64,000 nt of DNA, taken from assembly GCA_018238155.1 (NCBI GenBank), contig JABCTZ010000007.1, forward strand, positions 96,001-160,000. The letters are read 5' to 3'. Below the pieces are notes generated by a model that did not search any database, was not told the DNA's origin, and worked only from the letters and a program-made list of their open reading frames with translations. This DNA comes from Candidatus Heimdallarchaeota archaeon. GTDB lineage: Archaea; Asgardarchaeota; Heimdallarchaeia; JABLTI01. Shown here piece after piece: positions 18,854 to 56,417 of this stretch (within the stretch, counting starts at the first letter, position 1; the number at the start of each line of letters is the position of its first letter). The position numbers were made by a program, and so were the translations under genes.

Positions 18854-19597
18854 TTATTGTAGAAATACTTCAATTTTGAGCATCTTGCCGTCAGGTAACG
18901 TTTTTGTTCCTTCTTCTGCTAATTTTTCCCGCATATATATGGGCGCAATAGCTTCAAGAATGTCTTTGTTGTGATGTGTTCTACTTGGAATTATGATTGC
19001 TCCCATCGTTCCATCCTCAAATCGAGCTTTGTAACACATAACATCACCAAAATATCTACCCTTCTTTTCAAAACCATGAATAATATAGGGTTCAGATTGC
19101 CTTATTTGAGCGACTTTTTTCAAATCATCAACATTGAGTATTCGTAAATTAATTGTTCCCGGATAAGGGAGAAACCCTAATGTTTCCTCAAATTGTTTTG
19201 TATATTCCTCTTGCATAATATACCATGCTCCTTCTCCTAAACCGTTTTCAATTACACCATAAATTGTAGTTGAGCGTTTTTGCGAGTAAAGAGCCTTTGT
19301 AATCATAATACTGAGATTTTCTAAAAGTTCTTTTCCTAATTTAGTAATATGTACTGCTTGACCTCTTGATGTCCGTGAACGTTCGATGAGATGATTTTTT
19401 TCTAACTCAACAAGATATCTTGCAGCCGTCTGTTGAGATACACCTAAATATTTACCTAATTCACTACTAGTGATATCAATAGGATTGCTCAATGCTCCAT
19501 AAATGCCTAGCTTTAGGACCACTGCTAATTGTTTGCTATCAAAATCAACACTACTACCAAAAAAGAAGCTTTTCTTCTCTTGAGATTTTTTTGCCAT
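18854..19597 (-). CDS. ribK: CTP-dependent riboflavin kinase with N-terminal wHTH (RbkR regulator)
   Basis: SQQTAARYL HTH; G.GEG.WY, LGF.PYPGTIN, P.RTHH...LE.IAP..MR. Confidence 0.93.
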   Translation of the reverse strand: MAKKSQEKKSFFFGSSVDFDSKQLAVVLKLGIYGALSNPIDITSSELGKYLGVSQQTAARYLVELEKNHLIERSRTSRGQAVHITKLGKELLENLSIMITKALYSQKRSTTIYGVIENGLGEGAWYIMQEEYTKQFEETLGFLPYPGTINLRILNVDDLKKVAQIRQSEPYIIHGFEKKGRYFGDVMCYKARFEDGTMGAIIIPSRTHHNKDILEAIAPIYMREKLAEEGTKTLPDGKMLKIEVFLQ

Positions 19598-19822: not shown

Positions 19823-22192
19823 TTATTTTAGCTCTCGAGAGATCGAGAGTGCTTGACGACCGAGCGTCTCACCAATAACGACATTCTTGAATCCATCCGA
19901 AGTGGAGAGAATACCAACCCAATCCTTTTCAGTTTCATCTTTGAAAGCAATGAGCATTTCTTCTCCTCCATCTCTATCAAAAGCGATGTATTCTGCAAAC
20001 CCTTGCATATCTTGCATACCAATCTTTCTTATTTTGGCTCTTCCAAGTGCATCTGATGCTTTGATTTCATCAATAATATTCTTGTCAGCGACTTCATCAA
20101 TTTTTGATATGATGGTCATTTTAGCTTGTGCTTTGACCTTTCCTAAAGTCTTTGTTGGAATATCACTGGGTTCAGGTATGACCATAGTTACATTGGATTT
20201 TATTCTCAAAGTGAGCATATCATCCAATCTATCAAAGATTGCATCTTTACTGTAAAGAATTGCTGTTTCTATTTTTGGTCTTGGATAGGTTGTAACTGTC
20301 GTTTGGAACGCTTCATTTTGACTCTTGAATTCCATCAATAGTTGAGATATTTTCAATGAATCTTTTGAAAATCTATTATAATAATCATTGAATCCACCCT
20401 TTACGGCTTCTATTTCTTTTCTAACAGATGATTCAACTACATCGGTTATTGTTGAAATCGCTTTCAAGGAGGTTTCTTCATTGTTCCTGATACAAGTTGT
20501 TGCTGTGGTATTTACATCACTTATTACCGCAGTGGTTGTACTTCCAATAGTTTCAGTACCGGTAGTGCAATCTTTAGCAACTTTTTGCTTCGTTTTCTTG
20601 GTATCATTGATGAATGAATCCTTAGTCTCTTTCAGATTTTCTTTAGAGCTTGTAACCGTAGCATCTGCCATAGATGCAATATCTGCCGTCATCTGTGTTG
20701 TTGTTGTAGTTGTAGTATCAGAATTAGATGTTGTTAGAGAGGTTAATTTCTCTGTAACATTATTCTTTGTTAAATCGAATTCAGTTTTTGAGGTGTCTAC
20801 AGAGCTATCAATTGATGCATGCATTCCTGTAACTGTTTCTTCAACTTTGGCATTAATGTCTGCTGAGTAGTTAGATTTCAATAAAACAACACTTGAATTT
20901 AAGGTTGCGACTGTAGAATTTGTTGCTTCCAAAGTATTTGCATTTTGTTCTTCAACCTTTGTTAGCATAGATGCAGTTCCATCTTCTACAGCTTTATTAT
21001 CGATATCTACATTTGCAGCTATTTCTTCATTGTGTTTAGTTACTAATTCAGCAACAGAGGCATTAGCGTTCTCCATTAGAGCAGCAATTTCTTTGCTTGT
21101 GTTCGCATTCAAATCGTCAATTTGCTTTTTATATTTTTCAGAAATTTTCGTTAATTGCTTATTGAATTTCCCTTCAAAATCATTCATATCTGAAGCAAAA
21201 TGCTCTTTCACTTGATCAAAATTGGTACTAAGTCCTTCTTTGAATTGATTATTCAAATCAATTCTATTTTTCTTAGCTTCCTCAGCTGTTTCCTTCAAGA
21301 AAGCTCCTTGTTCATTTGTTGCTGTAGTGATTGTTTCACTAAGAGTTGTTACATTGCCTTCTGTTTCATTTACAAAAGTATCCAATCCTGATAAGACATG
21401 ATCTCTTGTATCTTCTAATTTTTCTTTAGAGTCATTTTTCAAAGCATTGCCAAGTTTTTCAACTTCATTGGTGATGGTTTGTGTTGCAGTAGCAATAGCA
21501 TTTGTTCCCTCGTTAAGGAATTCATCATTTCTTCCTTTGATTGTCGAATTCAATTCTTCTAGAGCAGTCTGGGAATTTGACTTTGCATTAGTTGAAAAAG
21601 TGTCTAAATTCTCATTTACATTTCCCTCAAAAGCTTCAACTGTTTCGGTTTGTTTGGTCAAGAAATCGTTTGTTTCTGATTTGATTGCTTTCTTGGTTGA
21701 ATTAACAGCTACATTAACAGACTCTTTTGCTTCGAGTGTTTTACTTTCAACAGAAGCTTTGCTTTCGTTGCTATTTAGAGAAACAATATCACTATTTTTC
21801 TTCTTTTCAGAGTGAACAAATTCTTCTGTATCTTTCATTACTTGATCGAAATGCTTAATCTGATTTGCAACGTACTCTTTCAATTCAGTTACTAGCTGAT
21901 CAATCTTATGTGCATCTTTTCCTGCTTCTTCGGCTATTTCTCTAAAAGGATAAAGACCAATTGCTTTATCTACTAACCCCTCAATATTATAGGCATAATT
22001 CTTTCCAAATAATACTTCAAGAGTTGCTTTTACTTTTGAGATGGGTTTAACTTGGGAATACTTAGAAATCTCTCCTAAAGTTAAAGGGCCCAAAGAAAGT
22101 AATGCGAGATACACCTTTTGTTCTATTTCACTTAAACCAAGTCTCTCAAGAAATGGTGTAGTAGTTGGTGTTGACATAATATATCCCTTCAT
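19823..22192 (-). CDS. TrmB-like wHTH + very long hendecad helical region + TrmB effector (PLD-like) domain
   Basis: LERLGLSEIEQKVYLALLSLGPLTLGEIS N-terminus; about 540 proline-free helical residues; C-terminal KSNVTMVIP...IAFDRDGGEEMLIA. Confidence 0.8.
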   Translation of the reverse strand: MKGYIMSTPTTTPFLERLGLSEIEQKVYLALLSLGPLTLGEISKYSQVKPISKVKATLEVLFGKNYAYNIEGLVDKAIGLYPFREIAEEAGKDAHKIDQLVTELKEYVANQIKHFDQVMKDTEEFVHSEKKKNSDIVSLNSNESKASVESKTLEAKESVNVAVNSTKKAIKSETNDFLTKQTETVEAFEGNVNENLDTFSTNAKSNSQTALEELNSTIKGRNDEFLNEGTNAIATATQTITNEVEKLGNALKNDSKEKLEDTRDHVLSGLDTFVNETEGNVTTLSETITTATNEQGAFLKETAEEAKKNRIDLNNQFKEGLSTNFDQVKEHFASDMNDFEGKFNKQLTKISEKYKKQIDDLNANTSKEIAALMENANASVAELVTKHNEEIAANVDIDNKAVEDGTASMLTKVEEQNANTLEATNSTVATLNSSVVLLKSNYSADINAKVEETVTGMHASIDSSVDTSKTEFDLTKNNVTEKLTSLTTSNSDTTTTTTTQMTADIASMADATVTSSKENLKETKDSFINDTKKTKQKVAKDCTTGTETIGSTTTAVISDVNTTATTCIRNNEETSLKAISTITDVVESSVRKEIEAVKGGFNDYYNRFSKDSLKISQLLMEFKSQNEAFQTTVTTYPRPKIETAILYSKDAIFDRLDDMLTLRIKSNVTMVIPEPSDIPTKTLGKVKAQAKMTIISKIDEVADKNIIDEIKASDALGRAKIRKIGMQDMQGFAEYIAFDRDGGEEMLIAFKDETEKDWVGILSTSDGFKNVVIGETLGRQALSISRELK

Positions 22193-22400
22193 ATCATTTT
22201 TACAAATTGATTTATTGCTTCATTTTTTCATAGTAAATCAAAGGTAGCAAATTTCTGTTATACTAACAAAAATTAACAAGTAAAACAGAAAAGGAGATTG
22301 TATAAATGTATTGCTCTTCATACAAATTTATGGCAAAGAAAAAATAGCTCAAAACACAAATTATGCGTTTTTTCTTAAAAATTAGATGAGAAGATAGGAA

Positions 22401-23165
22401 TTATAATGTTCCTTCTTCAATTGCCTTTATATCTAAGAAGGATTCCAATATGCCTTCATAGATTTTTCCATCAAGAATTGTTAAAGGTCTTTTTGCTTCT
22501 TTTGCAATCATATCTTCATGAGTTACAACAACAAGAGTAACGCCTTCTTCTTCGTTAATCTTCATTAAATAATCAATGATTTCTCGTGAGGTATTGCTAT
22601 CTAATTGACCTGTGGGTTCATCTAAAAGGATTAGTTCAGGTTTATTAGCCAATGCACGAGCAATTGCTACTCTTTGTCTTTGCCCACCACTTAGCTCCAT
22701 TGGAAAATGATCGCCTCTATCTGGTAATCCAATTACTTCAAGAAGTTCATACACTCTCTCTTCTCTTTCAGAAGTTGGAGTTCCATTTATAATCATTGGA
22801 AGTGCGATGTTTTCTGCTGTTGTCAAAATTTCAAGAAGATTAAATGCTTGGAAAACAAAACCAATTTTATTTCTGCGAATATCACGAATATCCTTGTTTG
22901 GCATTTGAGTTAGATTTACTCCATTAAAGAAAATTTCACCTGCAGTAGGATTGTCTATTGTTCCAATCAAATTGAGAAAAGTTGTTTTTCCACTTCCAGA
23001 AGGACCTACTATTGTTGCATACTCTCCTCTCTCGAGAGCAAAGTCAATACCATTAATAGCTTTGATTGTTGCTTCTCCAAAAGGGTATTCTTTTGTCAGT
23101 CCTTTAGTCTGAATAATAAAGTCATTTTTTTCAGCCAATGAAATTCGCTCCAGCTGTTTTATCAA
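22401..23165 (-). CDS. ABC transporter ATPase, LolD/MacB type
   Basis: [44 protein letters not shown]. Confidence 0.95.
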
Positions 23166-23281: not shown

Positions 23282-25513
23282 TTAAATAAGCCCCCTTCTT
23301 TTTTTATAGCTATTTTTAACAACAAAGTATCCAGAAATTGCTAGAATTATTATTGTTCCTCCTATTATTGGTCCTAAAGTCCAAAGTGGGAAAGGCTTGT
23401 CGAAAGGATCATTCGGATCACTACCACGTTTAATTTCCACATCATCAGTTATCCCGTCCCCATCCGTATCATCATTAATCGGATTTGTACCGTAAATATC
23501 GATTTCATCAACATTTGAAATTCCATCGCCATCTGAATCCAAATTCGCATCCTGAACAAGAGGATTTGTTAAATATCGTTTCACTTCATCCCCATCTAAT
23601 AGTCCATCTCCGTCCGTATCAGAAATATCTGGATTTGTGCTATGAGTGTACTCTTCAATATTAGTTAGCTTGTCTTCATCTAGATCTTCGTAAGTATCTG
23701 GTACAAACGGATCTGGATTTTCATATTGCACCTCAAACCCATCTGGTAAGAAATCTCCATCTGTATCTGAATTGAGTGGATTTGTTCCCGAAAATAATAC
23801 CTCATACCCATCTTCTAAATCATCTTGATCTGTATCTTTGATTGTTGGATCTGTAAAATAAATATCTGCTTCTTCTACATTTGTTAATAAATCACCATCT
23901 GTATCGAAATCTGTATCATTCTTTGTTGGATCCAAGCGATATCTGTAAATTTCATCTCCATCTAGTAACCCATCTCCATCTGTATCCTTCATTTGAACGT
24001 TGCTCCCAACAATTTCTTCCTCCAAATCACTTAGTCCATCCTGATCCATATCTGCAGTCAAACCGATTCGCTCATTGCCTCCCCGATAGCTTGGCCATGG
24101 TAAGAGTCCAAATGAACCTAGTTTATAACAATAAACATCTGAAAGGTCTCGCTCAGTCCCTGTGCCATGAGTTGTAATAATGATTTCAATTATCCCATCT
24201 TTATCAATGTCGCCTATTACTGGTGCAGAATCAATTCCTTTTATGCTTATTTCTTTCTTATACAGCTCAGTTCCATTATTCGAAATAATTAGTATTTTCC
24301 CAGAAGGCGTCACTTCGACAATTTCAGGAATAAAATCCCCATTTATATCACAAATAATTGAATCTTTGTAAATGACTTCACTATTAGTGCTATTCCAATA
24401 AACGTTCTTACTATTTCTTGCATCAGTAAAAGCAAAGAGTGTGACATTTGTGGGTTGAATTAGGAAGTCATTAATTCCATCCATATCCAAATCACCAATT
24501 GTTACACTATTTAGTATTGCATTTTCTGCCTCCCAAGGCCATTCGCTGAATTGTGAGCCGTTTTGATGATAAATGTACAAATTTCTGTCCCACGAACCAA
24601 TAATTATTTCATTCTTACTATCATTATTCAAATCAGTAACTGCAGGAGAAGCTCTAATATGATATGTTGTATTTTGTGGCCACCCTGGTAGTGGAACACC
24701 ATGACCATCAATAACGTGTATTGCATTGTCATAAGAACCAAAAACAATTTCTAATGCAGAATCTCCACCTAAATCCGCTAAAGCTGGTGTACCAATGATT
24801 TGATCTGTTGCACCTGTATATGGAAATCCTTCTACTTCTGATCCATTAAGCTCAAAAGCATGAATATTGTTATCCCACGTTCCAATAATTATTTCTTTCT
24901 CTCCGTCTCCATCAATATCCCCTGCAGAAAGTGATGATGTAATTTTATTACTTAATTCAATATCCCAGTTTGGAACCTCTGTAGCATTTAAAAACCAAGC
25001 ATGTAACGTTCCTGGATTGTGTGTTGCACAAATAATTTCTTTCTCACCATCTTCATTAAGATCTAAAGCAATTGGATATGGTGATATGCCTAAATCTGAT
25101 GTTAATTTCTCATTTGTAGCAATAGTACCATATGTTCCCCAACCTTCAAGAAAATTTCCTTCATGGTCTAAAATATAGATGAAACTATTTGCAGTCAAGA
25201 TAATAATTTCCATATCTCCATCTCCATCAAGGTCTGATAAAATTGGTGAAGATATTGCCGAGCCAATCAAATCTTCATGTATCCAAAGGGCATTTGTGAA
25301 GAATGACTCTATTTCTGCGCCAGAGTTAATAGAAAATATCGGCTCAGTAATAAACACTTGTTTCTGTTCAATTCGAGGGTTTAGCTGTTTTAATTTCAAA
25401 ATATCAGCGTCAAATGATTGTGCTAAACCAATATTTACACAAATCGTTAGTACAATAAAAATAAGTCCTATTCTGGAAATTATTATTTTATTTACCATTA
25501 AAGCATACCACAA
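23282..25513 (-). CDS. Cell-surface protein: FG-GAP/VCBS beta-propeller + bacterial TSP3 (DxDGDG) Ca-binding repeats + C-terminal TM
   Basis: Signal peptide; repeated SSP...DLDGDG..EII blades with GWP/GFP; about 9 NP...DTDGDGL.DG.E repeats; TM followed by KNSYKKRR. Confidence 0.88.
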   Translation of the reverse strand: MWYALMVNKIIISRIGLIFIVLTICVNIGLAQSFDADILKLKQLNPRIEQKQVFITEPIFSINSGAEIESFFTNALWIHEDLIGSAISSPILSDLDGDGDMEIIILTANSFIYILDHEGNFLEGWGTYGTIATNEKLTSDLGISPYPIALDLNEDGEKEIICATHNPGTLHAWFLNATEVPNWDIELSNKITSSLSAGDIDGDGEKEIIIGTWDNNIHAFELNGSEVEGFPYTGATDQIIGTPALADLGGDSALEIVFGSYDNAIHVIDGHGVPLPGWPQNTTYHIRASPAVTDLNNDSKNEIIIGSWDRNLYIYHQNGSQFSEWPWEAENAILNSVTIGDLDMDGINDFLIQPTNVTLFAFTDARNSKNVYWNSTNSEVIYKDSIICDINGDFIPEIVEVTPSGKILIISNNGTELYKKEISIKGIDSAPVIGDIDKDGIIEIIITTHGTGTERDLSDVYCYKLGSFGLLPWPSYRGGNERIGLTADMDQDGLSDLEEEIVGSNVQMKDTDGDGLLDGDEIYRYRLDPTKNDTDFDTDGDLLTNVEEADIYFTDPTIKDTDQDDLEDGYEVLFSGTNPLNSDTDGDFLPDGFEVQYENPDPFVPDTYEDLDEDKLTNIEEYTHSTNPDISDTDGDGLLDGDEVKRYLTNPLVQDANLDSDGDGISNVDEIDIYGTNPINDDTDGDGITDDVEIKRGSDPNDPFDKPFPLWTLGPIIGGTIIILAISGYFVVKNSYKKRRGLI

Positions 25514-25676: not shown

Positions 25677-28559
25677 ATGAGCTTAATATCTAGAGTTTTC
25701 GAAAAACTTAATCTGTTTTTCAGAATGATTTTCATTAATAAAAAATACACTCTAGTAGCATTTGTGGGCTTAGGAATAAGCCTTTCCCTTATATCTACAA
25801 GTTTAATTTTTCTTTATAGTTACCAATTTAACGCATTCAATAAATATGTCGTTGATCATCCCGAAGAGCAAATAACAATATCACCAAATAATATGCTTAA
25901 TTCTTTTGGGCAAGAGGATACTTTGATTCCTGATTTAAACTCGCTTGTGGATACTTCAATAAGTGATTCTGGGTTACAAGGTCGTGTTTCATATAGAGGA
26001 TGGTATAATCGTCGTGCGGTAGTTCTTCCTTATGAAGATCGAACTCATTATAATACCACTGAACTTTTACCCTTGTCAATGGTTGGTGTCCCAGTAGAAT
26101 TTTTTGATATATTGCAACCATATCTCATTGAGGGTGGAAGAATGCCTGCAAGTTCAAATGAAATTATTATATTGCTACGATCAGAATACTTTTCAACAAC
26201 AAATATTAGTGTCGGCGAACAAAATATCTTTGTTATTTCTAATCCTATAAATATTTGGGCTTCAGTATGGGACGGAGTTCCTAATGGCGGAGTGAGGATG
26301 AATGTTACCGGTATTATCAATGTCTATGATTTACAGAACAGTTTAAACAACACTTCAGATTCCACAACAAAAATCAGCAATCTATTTTCTGTTATTGATA
26401 CTGATGAAATGATATTAACGTTTCATAAAAATGTTATGGATTTCACATCTGGTTTAACTGGCATGCCGTCCTTGGTTGCTCCAAATAAACAAACCTATGT
26501 AGGATCTATTCTTTTCAATTTGAACGAAGTAAATGCTTTTAGAATCAATGATGATATATCTAACTTGATCGCTTTTTCTGAACAGTTACGTACTTCTATT
26601 GAAACTACAAGTTTAACAAATGATGTTCATATCGATTTGGATTTAGTAGTTATCCTTCAAGGGTTCGCATCTGAATTTGAAGTTTTTAAGATTTTTACCC
26701 TGTTATTTATGGTACCCATTATAAGTATGGCTTTATCTTTAACAGCATACTCGACTAACTTGGTCAAAAAACGCAGAAAACGCCAACTTGCTTTGTTAGG
26801 TCAAAGAGGTGTTTCTCAATTTGAGATTCTCTTTATGTTGTTTAGTGAGACCTTACTTTTTACCGTTATTGCAATAGTAATATCATTCATTATTGCGTAT
26901 CCATATTCATTTCTAATTTTAAAGAGTGATGCTTTTCTAAGTTTTCAGGGAGAAATAATTACTCCACAACTATATATTTTCATTATTGAAATTATAATTG
27001 CGATAGGTTTTGGTGGGTCATTGTTAGTAAATTTCAGCAATATCTGGAATTTAAGCAAAATAAGTGCTGAAGAAGCTTTCAGCGAAACGAAAACCAAAAA
27101 GCCATTCTGGGAACGATTTTATATTGATATATTCTTCTTAATTGTAGGAATTGTTGCTTGGATAATAACATTTTACCAACTTCGTAATACAGCTGTATCT
27201 TCTGCTTTTGCTCGAGTATTAGGAACACCGGCACCAATACTAATAATTGTTGGAACAGTTTTATTCATTTCTAGATTATATCCACTAATTACTACTTGGT
27301 TATCTAAAATTTCTTGGAAATATACTAAATTAGAAATGATTAGCATTTCACTAAGAAGTTTAAGTAGAAGAAGAAGTGCCTCGATGCGGTCATTAGTTCT
27401 AATTATGCTTACGTTTACTATGGCAATAATTTCTATTGTAATACCAGATACATATCAAAATTTCGATTATGAAAATGCTGCTTATGACATTGGATCAGAT
27501 ATAGTGATATCAGGGGTTTCTATGAATGATCCTAGTTTCCAGGCAAATATTGAAGCAATTGAGGGTGTTGAAGATACCACATATGTAGCCTTACTAACCT
27601 ATAATCCAATATCCCGGGGGAGTATAATCTATTCTTATTCAATAGTAGGTATAAATACTTCTGAATTTGCTAACGTTGCCTTTTTTGAAGATGAATATTT
27701 GGATGATGATTTAGAGGAAACATTAACTATTTTAGCACAACCCCCAGAATTGGGGTCTTCTGCCAATGTTTTAATTCAAGAGGATCAAGTAAAAGCATTT
27801 AATTTAACTGAAGGGAAAAATTTCAATATAACATATTTGCCCAGTGGTTCAAACGTGGAATACAATTATACCGTTACTACTGTTGGTTTCTATAATTATT
27901 GGCCTACTTTATACAAAATTGCACCAGAACAAGGTTCAACTATTTTCAGACTTGGTATGGTCACCAATTTAGCAACAATCTATGCTCTTGCAATGGATTC
28001 TGCCAACGTCAATGTTCAGTTGTATGTAGATGTAAAAGATGATTATATCGTTGAGACAGTTGCAGATGATATTCGTGGGAAAGTTTTTGGGCGGAGAATT
28101 GAAGACATAGATGAAAGAGTGACTATTTCGACAGGTAGTCTCAGAGCAGCAGTCATATATGGCTCTCTAAATTCCAATTTTATTGCATCTATTTTCATTC
28201 TTATCTTTGCTATGTCGTTAATGATGGTAATACATAGTTTGGAGCGTTCAAACGAAGTAGGAATTTTGAAAGCTATTGGTATATCTCCAAAGCAACTCTT
28301 CTCGTTTTTCTTCGTAGAATCACTCACTGTTATAATTGTAGGTGCAATAGTTGGAACATTCCTGGGGATGATTACTTCATATATGTTTATGTCAATAATA
28401 ACAATCAATAGATTCATCCCACCCTGGGGGATGGTTTTTTCACCATGGAAGATTATTGGAACAATATTAGTTATGTTATTTGCATCCATGCTTAGCTCAG
28501 CAATTCCAGGAGTTCTCTTTTCAAGACGGAAAGAAGCGCAAATTATGCGAGAGCTATGA
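25677..28559 (+). CDS. ABC transporter permease, duplicated MacB/FtsX type
   Basis: RRKRQLALLGQRG and ERSNEVGILKAIG coupling motifs, two large extracellular loops, about 10 TM. Confidence 0.9.
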   Translation: MSLISRVFEKLNLFFRMIFINKKYTLVAFVGLGISLSLISTSLIFLYSYQFNAFNKYVVDHPEEQITISPNNMLNSFGQEDTLIPDLNSLVDTSISDSGLQGRVSYRGWYNRRAVVLPYEDRTHYNTTELLPLSMVGVPVEFFDILQPYLIEGGRMPASSNEIIILLRSEYFSTTNISVGEQNIFVISNPINIWASVWDGVPNGGVRMNVTGIINVYDLQNSLNNTSDSTTKISNLFSVIDTDEMILTFHKNVMDFTSGLTGMPSLVAPNKQTYVGSILFNLNEVNAFRINDDISNLIAFSEQLRTSIETTSLTNDVHIDLDLVVILQGFASEFEVFKIFTLLFMVPIISMALSLTAYSTNLVKKRRKRQLALLGQRGVSQFEILFMLFSETLLFTVIAIVISFIIAYPYSFLILKSDAFLSFQGEIITPQLYIFIIEIIIAIGFGGSLLVNFSNIWNLSKISAEEAFSETKTKKPFWERFYIDIFFLIVGIVAWIITFYQLRNTAVSSAFARVLGTPAPILIIVGTVLFISRLYPLITTWLSKISWKYTKLEMISISLRSLSRRRSASMRSLVLIMLTFTMAIISIVIPDTYQNFDYENAAYDIGSDIVISGVSMNDPSFQANIEAIEGVEDTTYVALLTYNPISRGSIIYSYSIVGINTSEFANVAFFEDEYLDDDLEETLTILAQPPELGSSANVLIQEDQVKAFNLTEGKNFNITYLPSGSNVEYNYTVTTVGFYNYWPTLYKIAPEQGSTIFRLGMVTNLATIYALAMDSANVNVQLYVDVKDDYIVETVADDIRGKVFGRRIEDIDERVTISTGSLRAAVIYGSLNSNFIASIFILIFAMSLMMVIHSLERSNEVGILKAIGISPKQLFSFFFVESLTVIIVGAIVGTFLGMITSYMFMSIITINRFIPPWGMVFSPWKIIGTILVMLFASMLSSAIPGVLFSRRKEAQIMREL

Positions 28560-51318: not shown

Positions 51319-53259
51319 CTAAGATTGAAATTCTTGAGCTTTCATTTGTGAAAAGACTTTTTGATTTGTTAAATCAAAGAAGAGTTTGAATAATTTTGGA
51401 TTGGTAGTAACAAAAGCAATATTTTTCTCAGGGTGTATTTTTGGTGCATAAAGAATTTCTTCATTATCTTTAATTGCAATCCAATAGTCCATTCCTTTGT
51501 AATTCATTGTGTTAACATTTCCTCTTTTAACTAAAGAAGTCAGTAAGCTTACATCTTCTTCTTTAATTTTAGAAACAAGCTGATAGTTTGTTATCTGTGG
51601 TTGTTTCTCAATTTCATAGAGGAAATCCGTGAGTATTTCAGGTGTGATAATAGTAATTTCTTCTTTTGCGCGTAATAACATATCTTTCATAGCTCGAACT
51701 ATACACTCATTCCCGTAAATTAGACTAATTTCGAGATCTGCAAGAGGCATAACTTTCTCAGACATATTGACAATACCATCAAAGGTCTTTCCAGAATCAT
51801 CAAGGAGAAAAATAGTATTTCCAAGAGTATTATCTAATTTTGTTCCTGCTTCTTCCATGATTGTTGTCGTTGTATTAATTTTCTCTGAGTTTTCGTTGAT
51901 AACATTCTTAATTAAATTTTGAATGATGTCTTCTGTGTCTATTCTTGAAAGTGATATTATATCTTTGATCTCCAGCTTGCTTAGGTCAGTTTTTTCTTCA
52001 ATTTTTGCAAGTCTATCTGTAATCGAAGCACGAGCAATTTCATCTTGTTTATGTGCTTGTTTGGTTATATTTTCCTTAAATTGAGAAATGTCTTGAGTAA
52101 TGTCACCTTTCATTTTCTCAAGTTCTTTGAAGGGCTCAGTAATTTTTTGGTCAATAAATTTAGCTGACTCGTCTCTACTCTCTTCAAGATGAACAGTAAC
52201 TACTTCCAAAACATCAGGAACAGTAGATTCAACAGTAGTATTTACATATCGAATAAATTTGGTTACTTCTTCTGAATGCTCTTCTAGGAGAGTTCCTAAA
52301 GTAGTTTTAACTTCACTTTGTAGAAAATCAAATTGCCTAAATAATGGACCAAGTGAGTTGTTTATCATTTGAGAAGTATGGCTGCCAATATCGCCTTCCA
52401 TATCACGTGCGAGAATAACTACATTCTTGATTAGTTCACTGATAATTTGAGCAGCGTTTTCCCTAGCAGTGATGTCTTTCTCATCAAGATTAGCACTATA
52501 GCTAGATGTTGTTGTGAAATTTTGTTTAACTATATTATCACGAAGTTCAGTCAGAGAATCTTCAATATCCCTTTTTAATTTCTCAAGCCTTTCTGCAACA
52601 AGGATTTTATGGTGAATAGTTGATTTCTCTAATTTATCTCGAATCTCTCTGGAATCAATAACAAGCGAGTCTGCGTATTTGGAAATTGCACCAACAAAAT
52701 CATCCTTACTTGTTTCTAAATCTTTATCAAAAGCAGGTATTGTTTTTGCTATGCTATCTGAGGGCCATGCACTAAGGGTTACTCCCAAATGGTTCAATTG
52801 TTGAAAATTGTTATCAACCATTTGATTCAAACTGTGTTCCAAGCGGTCAAATTTCTTTGCTAACTCATCAGTCCGAGTATTTTTTTCCAGTTCACAAAAA
52901 TCGGCTAATTGAGGGACAACAGTTTTGATTTTAGTATTGAACTCATTTACTTGAACATGAAAATTATCCTTAATACTTATCAGTCCTAGTTTAACTTCAG
53001 AACTTAGCTGTGCATAATCTTTCAAGAAGGGTTCCATAGCAATGTAACGGGGGACTCTACCTGGAAGTTTTTTGATATAACTGATCTCCTCTAATTGCTT
53101 AATTTGAATATAAATTTCGGGAAGTTCCATTTTAATAGCTAAGTTGATTTCTCCAATAGTAGCATTACCAAGACCCAATACAGTAGAATAAACTAGAATC
53201 TCAGATTCGCTTAAACCACGAGCACGTAAGTAATCAGAACTAACTTCTTTCAGTGACAC
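51319..53259 (-). CDS. Second TrmB-like wHTH + long helical region + TrmB effector (PLD-like) domain; paralog of 19823..22192
   Basis: GLSESEILVYSTVLGLG.AT.GEI...PGRVPRYIAMEP; about 430 aa helical middle; IYG..I...KDML.RAKEEITIITP...IAIKDNEEILYA. Confidence 0.8.
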   Translation of the reverse strand: MSLKEVSSDYLRARGLSESEILVYSTVLGLGNATIGEINLAIKMELPEIYIQIKQLEEISYIKKLPGRVPRYIAMEPFLKDYAQLSSEVKLGLISIKDNFHVQVNEFNTKIKTVVPQLADFCELEKNTRTDELAKKFDRLEHSLNQMVDNNFQQLNHLGVTLSAWPSDSIAKTIPAFDKDLETSKDDFVGAISKYADSLVIDSREIRDKLEKSTIHHKILVAERLEKLKRDIEDSLTELRDNIVKQNFTTTSSYSANLDEKDITARENAAQIISELIKNVVILARDMEGDIGSHTSQMINNSLGPLFRQFDFLQSEVKTTLGTLLEEHSEEVTKFIRYVNTTVESTVPDVLEVVTVHLEESRDESAKFIDQKITEPFKELEKMKGDITQDISQFKENITKQAHKQDEIARASITDRLAKIEEKTDLSKLEIKDIISLSRIDTEDIIQNLIKNVINENSEKINTTTTIMEEAGTKLDNTLGNTIFLLDDSGKTFDGIVNMSEKVMPLADLEISLIYGNECIVRAMKDMLLRAKEEITIITPEILTDFLYEIEKQPQITNYQLVSKIKEEDVSLLTSLVKRGNVNTMNYKGMDYWIAIKDNEEILYAPKIHPEKNIAFVTTNPKLFKLFFDLTNQKVFSQMKAQEFQS

Positions 53260-53405: not shown

Positions 53406-56400
53406 CTAATGTTTTTTTCCGTTTGCACGGAAATAGATAAGCACTGCTACACCTGTGATAGCGATAAGCCCTACACCTATATAGATGAAGTTGAGCCAAC
53501 CTAAATTATTATCTCCAAATGATTGTATCGAAAATGACAAACTATTGGAATAGGAACCCCAACTATTTGTAGATGAACTACTAAAGTCATTCATGGAAAG
53601 ATCTCTGATGATGTCACTAGATTCGCTCGTAGTATAGAGAACGCCAAGCATTGATTCTCCTGTTTCATTTGTTGGTGCAGTAGAATCGTCATTTATTCCA
53701 TTTCTAGATGTCATATTGTATTTACTATTGTAACGAATCTCTGCAGATGGGATGTAAATTTCTCCAGAATCTTTGACTAAGAGATTTACTTCAATTACCA
53801 TTGTTTCATTTACACCAAGTGTAATGCCAACCGCTTCGTTAGAATTATAAAATCTTGCAATTCTACCAACAGTCATACCAATTTGAGGATTAATCCAATC
53901 CTTGACGTAAGAGGAGACTTCAACACCTTCAACAGCAACACTATCTGTATCTGCAACGAATCCTAAGTTTCCAGGAATTCTCTGAATATAGATGATATTA
54001 GTTGGTTCATTACCAATATTGGTAATTGTTGTTCTAAGAGTTATTTCATCTCCAACTTTTGTGTTATTTGTTAGACCAATAAGTTCAGTAGTAACTTCAA
54101 CTTCTGGAGTCGGATATAATGGATCAGTTGAGCCATCTTTTCCAGGTGGTGGTAAAACAAATCCAAAATCCATGGAACTAATAACATATTTATGTCTCGT
54201 AGTGTTGAATATTGGGTGAGAATAAATTAGTGTTTCAATTTCTGCAATTGATTCATTTGACATTCCACGAGTAAGGAACTCTGGTAAAGGTTGATAAACA
54301 TCTCTTGGGTCTGTACCTGTTTCATTACTTGTATAGCCAAATACTGCAAACACTGGTTGTAATCCAAAATAACCTTGAGCTGTAAAGGTGAATTCAATTG
54401 AGACAGTTTCACCGGCTTTAACTAATGGAAAAGTTCCATATGAGTCTTGAACTAGATGAATCTCCTCTAATTCTAAGTCACTAGTAATAAGTGCTTGATA
54501 GAATCGATAATCTATATCAATTGCATCTGCATTGCCAATATTTTCTAGCTCTAAAGTGAAAGTTAGGTTATCACCAAATTGATAAACGTCTTTGTCTAAA
54601 CTGACTTTACCAACTAATACAGCTTCATCATCATAGAGTTGTATTACTAAACCATTTGTTAATCCCATGAATTCTGTACCATCTTCTTCATAATAGACGA
54701 AAGGTGATCCTACAACATCCTGAGGGAACAAATTGGTCCAAGTAACTTGGTCTTCAGGAATATGCAATGTTGAACCTCCCATTCTAAGCATTAGTGTGAA
54801 ATATTCCTCCCAATCTACTTGCTCTTGTATGAAAATAGTAGCATTAGTTGTTATTCCATCGTCATAATTGTAATAATTGAAAGTACCTGTTGGTATATCT
54901 CTTACAGCAAAGCTCTTGGTTACATTCTCTCCAGGCGCTAATTCGTCTATAATTGTTGTCAATGTGAAATGGTCTGGAACACCCGTGATATTTGTTACAT
55001 CAAAATCACCATTATCAAGCTGTAAGAACGTTTGATCTACATGAGCTAAATCAATTAAATCATCTATACCTTCATCAGGATGATATTCACCTGCTCCTAA
55101 CCAAGTGCCAGAAGTGCCATTAAAGAACCAGCCTTCAATTGTATAGATATCTGAACCTGTAATCATTGTATCAGAAATATATCCATCTGTTAAATTATAA
55201 TAAATGATTTTGTTTTCATCAAAGTTTAATTCTTGGTTTTCTACGGGAGCTGAATATCCTGTCAATTCCTCATATGCAAAATCTCCATAAGATAGAGTTA
55301 TATTATATGCTGTTTCAACAGCATCAACATTTTCCCAAGTGAAAACATACTCGATATCTTGAGAACCATTAATTGGTAAACTTGAGTTTAATGACAATTC
55401 GCCAATAACTTGTGGGTATGAACGCTTGTCGGATAAATTAAGATCATAAGATACAAAAATATCCTCATAATTAAAATCTATACCGAAATCAATGAATTTT
55501 ACAAGCCAGAAATATATCCCTCGGTTCTCGTTATATGGCTGATTTGTAATTGGATTAACATCTAACATATCAACAATATAGGGCAAGTTCAATCTGACTA
55601 AACTAGCCCAAGCATTAGATGCTCCAGTAATACTGGTTAAATCTGGCATGGTGTTAAGCAAGCTGAAATCCATAATCGTGCCATCTTTCTCTAATCCATC
55701 GGGATTGACCCAAGCACATTGAAGAACTGGAACTAAACCCAAATCAATGTGCATAGCATCCAAAAACTTGGCCTTTATTAATGTGATAGCCATGGCTTTA
55801 ACAGGAGCCTCATTTAAAACACTTGTAGTAATTCCTTCGCCAAATCCCTCATCTGATATATAACTTGCATAGACATCAGTAAATGAATCAAGATAACTTT
55901 CTGATATTATACTCTGATAAACAAGAGTAGATACTCCATCATATCCATTCCATTTACCATATATTAGTGTAAATGAGAGATTATAGCTTGTTTCTATCAT
56001 TGAAGCAATAGCATTCCCTTGAGTGAGGCATTCGCTTGTGGTCAAACCTTGGAAGGTTAATGATAATGTTGCTCCATCTCCAATATCCCAGAATCTTCTC
56101 TGAGAATATTCTCTCCAAGATATTTGATTTGCAACAATAAAATTCAAAGCTTCTAAATTGTCATATGATGTAACATCAAAAGGCAACTCTACAGTTCCTC
56201 CAAAAAATCCTACATGAGCACCAATAGCTGTATCCTTTAGTGGATGTATATCAATCTGTTCAAAATATCTGCTTCCTGTATATTCCGCTTCAGCTAATTG
56301 TACATTACTTTCATTTAATGAATTACCTTTAAGCTGTGCTGTCGAAATAGACATGGCAATAAATAGAAGTGTGATTACTATTACCATTGATCCTTTGATT

Positions 56401-56417
56401 ATTCTATTTTTTGTCAT
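53406..56417 (-). CDS. Large acidic cell-surface/S-layer-like glycoprotein with Ig-like domains and C-terminal TM anchor
   Basis: Signal peptide; repeated GD.LT.TL.LENIG / GDEIT.RTTITNIG Ig-like (DUF11/CARDB-type) motifs; many N-x-S/T sequons; TM plus basic tail; own terminator. Confidence 0.8.
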   Translation of the reverse strand: MTKNRIIKGSMVIVITLLFIAMSISTAQLKGNSLNESNVQLAEAEYTGSRYFEQIDIHPLKDTAIGAHVGFFGGTVELPFDVTSYDNLEALNFIVANQISWREYSQRRFWDIGDGATLSLTFQGLTTSECLTQGNAIASMIETSYNLSFTLIYGKWNGYDGVSTLVYQSIISESYLDSFTDVYASYISDEGFGEGITTSVLNEAPVKAMAITLIKAKFLDAMHIDLGLVPVLQCAWVNPDGLEKDGTIMDFSLLNTMPDLTSITGASNAWASLVRLNLPYIVDMLDVNPITNQPYNENRGIYFWLVKFIDFGIDFNYEDIFVSYDLNLSDKRSYPQVIGELSLNSSLPINGSQDIEYVFTWENVDAVETAYNITLSYGDFAYEELTGYSAPVENQELNFDENKIIYYNLTDGYISDTMITGSDIYTIEGWFFNGTSGTWLGAGEYHPDEGIDDLIDLAHVDQTFLQLDNGDFDVTNITGVPDHFTLTTIIDELAPGENVTKSFAVRDIPTGTFNYYNYDDGITTNATIFIQEQVDWEEYFTLMLRMGGSTLHIPEDQVTWTNLFPQDVVGSPFVYYEEDGTEFMGLTNGLVIQLYDDEAVLVGKVSLDKDVYQFGDNLTFTLELENIGNADAIDIDYRFYQALITSDLELEEIHLVQDSYGTFPLVKAGETVSIEFTFTAQGYFGLQPVFAVFGYTSNETGTDPRDVYQPLPEFLTRGMSNESIAEIETLIYSHPIFNTTRHKYVISSMDFGFVLPPPGKDGSTDPLYPTPEVEVTTELIGLTNNTKVGDEITLRTTITNIGNEPTNIIYIQRIPGNLGFVADTDSVAVEGVEVSSYVKDWINPQIGMTVGRIARFYNSNEAVGITLGVNETMVIEVNLLVKDSGEIYIPSAEIRYNSKYNMTSRNGINDDSTAPTNETGESMLGVLYTTSESSDIIRDLSMNDFSSSSTNSWGSYSNSLSFSIQSFGDNNLGWLNFIYIGVGLIAITGVAVLIYFRANGKKH

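Follow-up and report, generated by a model that had tools for sequence, protein, structure and literature searches.

What could a TrmB-family protein do with a helix of several hundred residues set between its DNA-binding head and its C-terminal domain? The question was raised by an open reading frame in the window, a stretch of Asgard archaeal DNA of 64,000 nucleotides. The original prediction had read the encoded protein (P0001) as a TrmB regulator scaffold carrying an insert of about 540 helical residues, and had noticed a paralog (P0002) 29 kb away. It had suggested that the protein might act as a chromosome tether, a lamina-like filament or a DNA-membrane linker. The two genes and the candidate control elements of the first lie as follows.

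19823..22177, minus strand: coding sequence of the putative rod protein (P0001), 784 aa counted from M6, with its stop codon at 19823-19825
22185..22190, minus strand: Shine-Dalgarno-like GAAGGG, about 8 nt before the M6 ATG
22301..22306, minus strand: TATA-box-like TTTATA, about 125 nt before the start codon, proposed from sequence only
51319..53259, minus strand: paralog P0002, 646 aa, with TrmB wHTH, hendecad tract (residues 72-488) and TrmB-type C-terminal domain

The full open reading frame of the first gene is 19823..22192(-), 789 aa, and all residue numbers of P0001 follow this frame, starting at 22192. Translation almost certainly begins at M6 (22177) and yields 784 aa, because the database orthologs are 781-787 aa long, a GAGGGG or AGGGG ribosome-binding motif precedes the M6 ATG by about 8 nt in 7/7 ortholog upstream regions, and the upstream ATG is not in frame in ortholog L007. 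The leader between TTTATA and the start is conserved in part. An inverted repeat at 22252-22291 was considered as a conserved operator and rejected, its right arm not being kept in orthologs of 56-66% identity. Gene neighbourhood was likewise set aside as a functional clue to either protein: it gave no link and is conserved only inside the genus or family. P0001 lies near an ABC ATPase, riboflavin kinase and CinA, P0002 near a PRC-barrel ORF and a surface protein, and other paralog families sit by different genes again (endonuclease III, small GTPase).

We started the dissection of the protein from its two ends, which are the following.

21947..22156, minus strand: TrmB-type winged helix-turn-helix (wHTH), residues 13-82; Pfam PF01978
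19826..20284, minus strand: C-terminal alpha/beta PLD-like domain, residues 637-789; fold match to TrmB and TrmBL2

The N-terminal wHTH that had been predicted was borne out by Pfam: PF01978 matched residues 15-72 with an E value of 5.5e-10, scoring 39.4 bits where the cut-off is 25.6, and recurred in 22/22 orthologs of P0001 and 28/28 orthologs of the paralog. The AF2 model places the helices of this domain at residues 13-17, 22-34, 39-46 and 51-63. The wing residues G72-P82 are almost invariant in the ortholog alignment. With a net charge of +1, the domain is not obviously a non-specific DNA binder.

The C-terminal domain (about 150 aa) is the best-conserved portion of the protein in the ortholog alignment, and the Pfam search gave it no match of its own. 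Because TrmB (3qph) reached only E 0.47 in a profile search against PDB sequences, homology of this domain to the first of TrmB's effector subdomains rests on fold and on the paralog, the sequence link being indirect. By fold, VIA matched it to 3qph (Z 10.7), 2f5t (Z 10.6) and 5bqt (Z 10.3), with rmsd values of 2.5-3.5 across 110-121 residues, and the best Foldseek matches were TrmBL2 (E 2e-5). By sequence, BLASTP linked the C-terminal domains of P0001 and P0002 (E 2e-5), and P0002 in turn has a weak match to PF11495 that is confined to profile positions 2-121 of 233, which fits the TrmBL2 architecture; PF11495 was matched in 4/28 P0002 orthologs, with a best E value of 3e-5. The VIA alignment covers TrmB residues 108-236 only, and P0001 stops about 150 residues past the helix, so the TrmB sugar-binding subdomain is absent. 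The effector-like domain of the original prediction thus stands as to its PLD-like subdomain and falls as to its sugar-binding one. Since only the PLD-like subdomain is present, the head is TrmBL2-like. A catalytic PLD reading was rejected, as no histidine is invariant among the orthologs and there is hence no HKD motif.

TrmBL2 (5bpd, 5bqt, 5box, 5bpi), a chromatin protein of Thermococcales, consists of an HTH, a helix for dimerisation and, at the C-terminus, a domain without the sugar-binding subdomain; it coats dsDNA non-specifically, forms tetramers and is highly abundant (PMC4877046). The order of parts in P0001 (wHTH, amphipathic helix, PLD-like domain) is identical. However, sequence identity between the two is only 10-14%, P0001 is an Asgard protein, and TrmBL2 has about 260 aa and one dimerisation helix, whereas the helix of P0001 spans 551 residues and is predicted to be folded or paired antiparallel. 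TrmB and TrmBL1 (3qph, 2f5t) share the PF01978 wHTH and the first effector subdomain with P0001, but their sugar-binding subdomain and their sugar-transporter context are both absent.

The part in between can be divided into two arms around a centre.

21140..21943, minus strand: stalk arm 1, residues 84-351 (268 aa), an unbroken hendecad amphipathic helix (AF2; period 3.68)
21122..21139, minus strand: centre of antiparallel symmetry and predicted tip, residues 352-357, in the conserved KFKKQIDDL
20291..21121, minus strand: stalk arm 2, residues 358-634 (277 aa), a hendecad helix (AF2; phase tracking)

As in the TrmB family, an amphipathic helix begins right after the wHTH, here at residue 84, but it runs for 551 residues to position 634 instead of about 30. 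The very long insert was therefore real, and the estimate of 540 residues was replaced by 551. There is no proline from residue 82 to 637, in line with the predicted proline-free tract, and the 11-mers quoted with that prediction were found at residues 317-382. Fourier analysis of hydrophobicity over residues 86-640, which had been suggested as a check for a 3.67 period, returned a sole peak at 3.68 with a power of 446. The top power in 200 shuffles averaged 52 and never exceeded 94, and the power of the real sequence was 18 at a period of 3.5 and 12 at 3.6. The 11/3 phase continues uninterrupted from about residue 83 to about 632, and the BLOSUM autocorrelation of the tract peaks at multiples of 11 and at 11k+4. 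P0001 thus shows the 3.67 periodicity over many turns that characterises the hendecad (11/3) class. The hydrophobic face of the helix is about 120 degrees wide and bears about 2.6 large hydrophobic residues per 11, with K/R enriched along one flank; a run of Thr lies within arm 2 at residues 493-499. AF2 assigns a pLDDT of 85-90 across residues 130-300. Not a single indel occurs in the tract among 22 orthologs (56-88% identity). The arms carry net charges of -18 and -16, or -34 for the whole stalk, and so strongly acidic a composition speaks against binding of DNA or of anionic membranes by the stalk itself. A periodicity near 11/3 leads to helix packing that is nearly straight or slightly right-handed (PMC6131620).

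How such a helix is arranged depends on what its two halves pair with. In the AF2 monomer of P0001, helices H84-351 and H358-634 are joined by a turn at 352-357, in a model whose pTM is only 0.33 and whose pLDDT is about 50 near the turn. Long helices are often folded back on themselves in AF2 monomer models. The alignments supplied two further lines of evidence. First, the conservation profile mirrors at position 355.5 (r 0.75, where block shuffling gave a null of 0.51 +/- 0.09), and conserved patches mirror each other along the stalk at 260-281/430-451 and 304-328/386-412; by itself this mirror statistic is modest, with z about 2.7, 1.2 and 2 in three families. Second, APC-corrected mutual information (MI) is highest on anti-diagonals centred on 356.5 (z 5.2), where i+j sums of 709, 712 and 716 stand out as peaks, and column-shuffled controls were flat. 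The MI signal is strong in the P0001 family only, where phylogeny acting on mirrored variable blocks could inflate it.

The paralog and a third family gave their own centres. P0002, confirmed to have the same three parts as P0001 (TrmB HTH at E 1.2e-7; period 3.68, power 398), shows no tract indel among 28 orthologs. In its family, the AF2 turn at 287-292, the mirror centre at 287-288 and the MI centre at 286.5 fall on a conserved motif.

52384-52401, minus strand: conserved turn REK[P/S]GDIS of P0002, residues 287-292, with Pro/Ser-Gly at the tract centre

The symmetry centre of P0001 has neither Gly nor Pro, nor a CxxC. In the third family (17 genomes, 39-82% identity), the mirror centre lies at 358-359.5, and the sole indel of the tract is a 7-residue insertion at its midpoint. 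When distant cluster representatives (15-28% identity) were aligned instead, the mirror and indel results were unreliable and were dropped. On this basis, the sequence comparisons and the model favour antiparallel pairing of the two halves of the 551-residue helix about residue ~356, and argue against a simple parallel coiled coil of 80 nm. Of the rod lengths first proposed, 40 nm for a folded-back chain is favoured, together with a strand-swapped antiparallel dimer, over the simple parallel 80 nm rod. The AF2 turn, the mirror conservation and the covariation fit intra-chain and inter-chain (strand-swapped) antiparallel pairing equally.

We then asked how widely such proteins occur. The genome encodes five of them, of 646-1196 aa and with differing stalk lengths. 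The family was present in 11/11 other scored genomes of the window's own taxonomic family, in 62/71 genomes from five further families in the class and in 0/1 of a sixth (f2). Phylum-wide, 136/400 Asgard genomes gave matches, mostly open frames of 600-2092 aa, and the relatives are spread over Heimdall-, Hod-, Hel- and Lokiarchaeia-type genomes; the family is thus not sporadic. Every long relative that was checked (87/87) keeps the 11/3 period, with a peak at 3.645-3.685, and in all 87 the spectral power grows with tract length, which implies that no tip resets the phase. Hendecad stalks in relatives reach about 1700-1900 residues. In the Protein Atlas, a search with the whole ortholog P0026 found unnamed Promethearchaeota clusters, ordinary TrmB clusters and nothing else, and literature searches found no description of this TrmB-head/long-stalk family.

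Overall, we favour, with confidence somewhat short of even, the reading that P0001 joins a TrmBL2-type head to an acidic two-helix stalk of about 40 nm and works as an architectural, DNA-anchored rod. The protein is probably a structural rod of this kind and not a regulator that senses sugar. The one dimerisation helix in TrmB and TrmBL2 would have been expanded into the 551-residue proline-free hendecad helix, whose halves would pair within one chain. The stalk would return the chain to its base, bringing wHTH and C-terminal domain together there as in TrmBL2. This base may dimerise in the manner of TrmB and bind DNA through the wHTH, and the acidic stalk would then stand off from the DNA as a fixed-length rod, serving either as a spacer or, through its mirrored patches, as a docking arm. 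The five paralogs of differing stalk length and the Asgard relatives suggest a set of such rods of defined length, with an architectural role on the nucleoid.

The alternative that survives best keeps the antiparallel pairing and places it between chains: a strand-swapped dimer (or tetramer) of straight 551-residue helices, forming a rod of about 80 nm. The wHTH of one chain would sit beside the C-terminal domain of the other at each end, and the assembly would bridge two DNAs at a fixed distance like a giant Sso10a. Archaeal proteins of the Sso10a type are architectural DNA-binding proteins made of a wHTH and an antiparallel coiled coil (PMC4941522, PMC11841832); they are likened to P0001 by architecture, but have about 95 aa, a rod of a few nm and no C-terminal domain. 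A strand-swapped dimer predicts the mirror conservation, the anti-diagonal covariation and the central indel equally well. Moreover, hendecad phase and peak amplitude pass through the centre of P0001 and KFKKQIDDL contains no helix breaker, which favours a continuous helix there. The tracking of spectral power with tract length in the long relatives points the same way, as does the closest profile match of P0001, apolipoprotein A-IV. On the other hand, the P0002 family has its conserved Pro/Ser-Gly exactly at the centre, AF2 predicts intrachain hairpins in both families, and the strand-swapped form would lack the wHTH pairs on adjacent major grooves that are normal for the TrmB family (PMC4877046). 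We consider the strand-swapped form unlikely.

The preferred intra-chain stalk also resembles other long hairpins, and this likeness bears on a regulatory reading. Like the modelled P0001, SMC/Rad50 arms and chemoreceptor hairpins are long two-helix antiparallel stalks of conserved length. Structural matches of P0001 included 5xg2 (Z 11.5), the chemoreceptor hairpin 2ch7 (Z 11.7) and also 7zr1, with Z values that are usual for any long helices. SMC and Rad50 have an ABC ATPase head and a hinge or zinc hook at the apex of the coiled coil, none of which is found in P0001 (no SMC_N, Rad50 or hinge domain in Pfam and NCBIfam searches), and the repeat of P0001 is hendecad, not heptad. Chemoreceptor cytoplasmic hairpins tolerate indels only at their symmetry centre, and the indel pattern here is similar, with indels apparently allowed only at that point. 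However, methyl-accepting chemotaxis proteins combine an MCPsignal domain, with a conserved tip to the hairpin, and a heptad register (3.5), against a period of 3.68 in P0001; the structural match is only that of a generic antiparallel hairpin.

P0001 could accordingly be an ordinary sequence-specific TrmB regulator whose stalk is a sensor or partner scaffold, signalling along its paired helices as chemoreceptors do, with no structural role on the chromosome. The TrmB-family head, the near-neutral wHTH, the chemoreceptor match and the mirrored patches, as possible partner sites, are compatible with this. But P0001 lacks the effector-binding subdomain, the Pfam search found no MCPsignal or HAMP, the upstream inverted repeat is lost in more distant orthologs and leaves no conserved operator, and there is no conserved regulon-like neighbourhood. 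Nor are five paralogs, and relatives whose stalks reach about 1900 residues, easy to square with sensors. A regulator with such a stalk is unlikely in our judgement, and an ordinary metabolite-sensing regulator is the less likely reading beside the structural rod.

A third possibility is a DNA-membrane or DNA-lipid tether, in which an apolipoprotein- or perilipin-like helix would open on a lipid surface and the wHTH would hold DNA. ApoA-IV and ApoA-I (PF01442) share an 11/22-residue amphipathic periodicity with P0001: the profile of P0001 matched ApoA-IV with an E value of 4e-7 over 214 residues, and PF01442 (Apolipoprotein A1/A4/E) hit 22/22 orthologs. P0001 itself scored 50.8 bits, under the cut-off of 90, and two distant relatives exceeded the gathering cut-off (P0065, 105 bits; P0115, 93 bits). 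The 11/3 period, which gives a straight hydrophobic stripe, and the K/R flank would also suit a lipid surface. Apolipoprotein 22-mers are, however, punctuated by proline, whereas P0001 has no such punctuation, no signal peptide, a cytoplasmic location and a DNA-binding type of head; the likeness is best explained as convergence of periodic sequence. A net charge of -34 would not suit anionic archaeal membranes, large hydrophobic residues are few on the hydrophobic face (about 2.6 per 11), and the strict intolerance of indels, the mirrored conservation and the covariation speak for specific packing between helices. We regard a lipid tether as improbable.

Other hendecad rods include the A/V-ATPase peripheral stalk EG, the 51-residue repeat of Streptomyces Scy/FilP, tetrabrachion and the ZorA tail. 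They have neither a wHTH head nor a PLD-like domain, and their partners, oligomeric states and contexts differ. In PADLOC, P0001 matched the long ZorA tail (E 4e-10), within ZorA profile positions 222-544 of 692 only. Identity with Zorya ZorA, raised by PADLOC and NCBIfam matches, was rejected as driven by periodicity: the N-terminus is a wHTH and no transmembrane stator of the MotA/ExbB type, and defence genes are lacking from the context. A hendecad coiled coil of parallel, in-register chains, homodimeric or of higher order, that measures about 80 nm and forms lamin- or FilP-like filaments, would agree with the continuous register, the ZorA-tail match and the parallel helix through which TrmB and TrmBL2 dimerise after the wHTH (PMC4877046), but is very improbable, since it predicts no mirror conservation, anti-diagonal covariation or midpoint-only indel, would put the C-terminal domain 80 nm from a wHTH that it touches in TrmBL2-type proteins, and would have to be held by a hydrophobic stripe narrow for a stable long two-stranded coil.

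To our knowledge, the archaeal chromatin proteins described to date are all small. Here, orthologs down to 56% identity keep a 40 nm (or 80 nm) stalk whose length has not changed by a single residue. Should these proteins serve as DNA-anchored rulers, tethers or bridges, nucleoid organisation in the lineage closest to eukaryotes would gain a new layer. We find it quite doubtful, and state it as a speculation, that the Asgard family as a whole forms a nucleoid scaffold of rods whose lengths are fixed and specific to each paralog (from about 30 to more than 120 nm), acting as chromatin-membrane or chromatin-cytoskeleton spacers or as DNA bridges of set distance. If it were true, such a scaffold would match in function, among the prokaryotes most closely related to eukaryotes, the nuclear architecture of the lamina or linker type. 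The family also offers an unusually clean example from nature of very long, phase-coherent hendecad helices, useful to the structural biology of coiled coils.

Homologs are encoded in closed single-contig genomes, part of which may come from cultured strains, and this could open the idea of DNA-anchored rulers, tethers or bridges to direct testing.

The open reading frame 19823..22192 on the minus strand, which encodes the rod protein P0001, translates to 789 aa, and residues are numbered here in that frame. Database orthologs have 781-787 aa, a GAGGGG-type ribosome-binding site lies ~8 nt 5' of the sixth-codon ATG in all seven ortholog loci (7/7), and the more 5' ATG falls out of frame in the ortholog locus L007. 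Because of the conserved ribosome-binding site, the ortholog lengths and the frame in L007, we took the gene as 19823..22177, with a predicted start at the sixth codon and a product of 784 aa. The leader is ~110-125 nt long, conserved in length, with a strong SD motif, and the following elements were located in it or just before it:

22301-22306, TATA-like box, directly upstream of the inverted repeat
22252..22291, inverted repeat (13-nt arms, 14-nt spacer), just downstream of the TATA-like box

The repeat is identical in the closest ortholog, and its right arm is unconserved in more distant ones.

Pfam confirmed the predicted TrmB-type wHTH at the N-terminus (residues 15-72, E 5.5e-10, 39.4 bits, cut-off 25.6). 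An AlphaFold2 model built with 22 orthologs (mean pLDDT 72.6, pTM 0.33) comprises a wHTH (13-63), an alpha/beta domain (644-787) and, between them, two very long helices (84-351 and 358-634). The top PDB matches by Foldseek were TrmBL2 chains (E 2e-5), followed by TrmB and PLD-fold proteins. For residues 641-781, VIA-align gave Z 10.7 against TrmB 3qph (rmsd 3.5, 121 residues aligned), Z 10.6 against TrmB 2f5t (rmsd 2.5, 110 residues) and Z 10.3 against TrmBL2 5bqt (rmsd 3.2, 120 residues), with PLD-type nucleases ranking just below. This C-domain, the most conserved part of P0001, has no Pfam match by sequence. It is homologous to the C-domain of the paralog P0002 (BLASTP E 2e-5), and 4 of 28 P0002-family members reach PF11495 Regulator_TrmB (best E 3e-5), with the match confined to profile positions 2-121 of 233. 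A catalytic HKD domain was rejected, since the ortholog alignment contains no invariant histidine in this domain. TrmBL2 consists of an HTH, a helix and, C-terminally, a domain lacking the sugar-binding subdomain (PMC4877046), and P0001 has the identical succession. Therefore the effector-like domain of the original prediction stands as a fold (Z 10.3-10.7) but without the sugar-binding subdomain, and the P0001 head is shown here to be of the TrmB family, TrmBL2 type.

The hendecad tract between these domains is real and far beyond chance. No proline occurs between residues 82 and 637, and the 11-mers that had originally drawn attention lie at residues 317-382. The predicted period of 3.67 was recovered: for hydrophobicity over residues 86-640 one spectral peak dominates, at period 3.68 with power 446 (18 at 3.5 and 12 at 3.6), whereas the maximum for shuffled tracts averaged 52 and never exceeded 94 in 200 shuffles. 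In a sliding 44-residue window the 11/3 phase is unbroken from residue ~83 to ~632, drifting by ~-130 degrees overall, equivalent to ~four 4-residue stutters, and similarity autocorrelation has maxima at lags 11, 22, 55 and at 11k+4. The hydrophobic face is ~120 degrees wide, with ~2.6 large hydrophobic residues per 11, K/R enriched along one of its flanks and D/E at the back. P0001 also showed a sub-threshold Pfam match to Apolipoprotein A1/A4/E (residues 231-387), a profile match to ApoA-IV (E 4e-7) and matches to ZorA tails, a likeness for which the shared 11-residue periodicity is the best explanation.

Several partly independent lines make it probable that the two halves of the stalk, arms of 268 and 277 residues, pair antiparallel about its midpoint. 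In the AlphaFold2 model the helix is interrupted at residues 352-357. Conservation along the tract has mirror symmetry, with the best centre at 355.5 (with 11-residue smoothing, r 0.75, against a block-shuffle maximum of 0.51 +/- 0.09); this centre stays best at all smoothings of >=4 residues and after detrending, and conserved patches oppose each other at 260-281/430-451 and 304-328/386-412. The anti-diagonal mean of APC-corrected mutual information (MI) peaks at centre 356.5 (z 5.2, 680 possible sums; column-shuffled controls, n=12, z -0.9 to 1.1). Single peaks at i+j = 709, 712 and 716 have the 3-4 residue spacing expected of helix-helix contacts, and the MI could be inflated by phylogeny acting on mirrored variable blocks. 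For the P0002 family (28 orthologs of 644-646 aa, 64-89% identical) the AlphaFold2 turn lies at 287-292, the mirror centre at 287-288 and the MI centre at 286.5, and REK[P/S]GDIS is conserved exactly at the centre. A third family, taken from another Heimdallarchaeia family (17 genomes, 39-82% identity, ~800 aa), has its mirror centre at 358-359.5 and, as the sole tract indel, a 7-residue insertion after position 364 (tract midpoint 363.5); its MI is weak (rank 32 of 714). Taken by itself, the mirror symmetry scores modestly (z about 2.7, 1.2 and 2 in the three families). Neither the 22 P0001 orthologs (56-88% identity) nor the 28 P0002 orthologs contain a tract indel, as expected if each residue pairs with one on the other arm.

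At 0.15 nm per residue, the hairpin stalk would be about 40 nm long and a straight 551-residue helix about 83 nm. If straight helices of two chains paired antiparallel as a dimer, all the pairing lines would be expected equally, except the AlphaFold2 monomer, and such models have a tendency to double long helices back. Three features count for the straight form: the hendecad phase, at its highest amplitude, passes through the P0001 centre; KFKKQIDDL at that centre contains no helix breaker; and spectral power grows with tract length in 87 of 87 long relatives, so that the phase is never reset. The Pro/Ser-Gly at the centre of P0002, the AlphaFold2 hairpins in both families and the need of TrmB-type heads to act in pairs (PMC4877046) count for the hairpin. 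The rod of the original prediction, ~80 nm or ~40 nm if folded back, is thus retained, with the folded-back or antiparallel form favoured.

P0001 defines an undescribed Asgard-wide family of TrmBL2-type proteins with a giant antiparallel hendecad stalk; full-text literature searches found no description of it. The source assembly (4.08 Mb, Heimdallarchaeia-type; window on contig C39) encodes five wHTH-hendecad proteins: 784 and 646 aa in the window, the latter being the paralog noted 29 kb away, and 752 aa (C4), 766 aa (C16) and 1196 aa (C17) elsewhere. The C17 rod (locus L073, 147600-151800, minus strand; TrmB HTH 38.1 bits) continues for ~1100 residues after the HTH with period 3.665 and power 977, remaining helical up to its final residue and lacking a C-terminal PLD-like domain. 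Ordinary TrmB-size frames in this genome have 274 and 349 aa. Across the phylum, where paralogs were to be counted, the P0001-ortholog profile matched 136 of 400 genomes (E<=1e-5): all 11 others scored in the window's own family, 26/31, 3/3, 9/12, 22/22 and 2/2 in the same-class families f3 to f7, 0/1 in f2, and just 4/135 in one large family. Most matching frames have 600-2092 aa. Relatives with a like N-terminal wHTH and first helix have frames of ~1794-1811 aa, in 13 genomes of a single genus, and of 2092 aa; long-frame examples from other Asgard families are:

G103:C78:26299-26787
G305:C178:15071-15547

Among 1.84 billion cluster representatives, only 173 clusters matched at E<=1e-3. Representatives of 752-1907 aa all had TrmB HTH and Apolipoprotein-like matches, two passing the PF01442 cut-off, and those of 1788-1907 aa kept a coherent 11/3 period over their full length. 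Named members come from Heimdall-, Hod-, Hel-, Prometh- and Asgardarchaeia MAGs and are annotated as hypothetical or HTH-containing. The closest ESM-Atlas clusters are unnamed Promethearchaeota proteins, and the nearest database proteins to P0001 carry the names Candidatus Heimdallarchaeota or Asgard group.

The stalk is shown here to be a rigid-looking, length-invariant, antiparallel hendecad. It is strongly acidic (arms -18 and -16), and the wHTH is near neutral (+1). We infer that P0001 is an architectural, DNA-anchored rod, whose head would bind DNA and whose stalk would extend outward from it as a spacer of fixed length or an arm for docking. A less likely reading is a specific regulator that uses the stalk as a scaffold arm. 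That the stalk lies along DNA or an anionic membrane is made less likely by its acidic charge, its narrow hydrophobic stripe and the signs of specific packing between helices. An ordinary sugar regulator is disfavoured, as P0001 lacks an effector subdomain and a regulon context, and no conserved operator was seen among the ortholog upstream regions compared.

Comparison of ortholog neighbourhoods found no conserved operon partners of rod genes. The neighbours in the window are:

18854..19597, minus, CTP-dependent riboflavin kinase (PF01982) with N-terminal MarR/Crp-like HTH
22401..23165, minus, ABC ATPase, clustered with genes to 28559
23282..25513, minus, FG-GAP/bacterial TSP3-repeat surface protein, 743 aa, C-terminal anchor
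25677..28559, plus, FtsX-type permease, 960 aa
50836..51213, minus, PRC-barrel ORF, 125 aa (PF05239, 22.5 bits, cut-off 21.2)
53406..56417, minus, membrane-anchored surface protein, 1003 aa (TRAP_beta 25.1 bits, cut-off 22.4; weak CARDB)

The riboflavin kinase fusion, of the archaeal RibK-regulator type, is the downstream neighbour of P0001, and the ABC ATPase is a conserved upstream neighbour within the genus. TRAP_beta is the eukaryote-type family name for translocon-associated protein beta, and the match of this Asgard surface protein may reflect only a shared Ig-like fold. Rod paralogs of f3 (765-783 aa, loci L035-L052) have an endonuclease III-like gene next to them in 17 loci and a small Ras/Arf-like GTPase gene in 12; all the loci are close kin, and the linkage may be plain synteny. 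The PRC-barrel ORF lies ~105 nt downstream of P0002 on the same strand, a pairing seen in 10 loci, all of one genus or family; PRC-barrel proteins have been linked to archaeal cell division.
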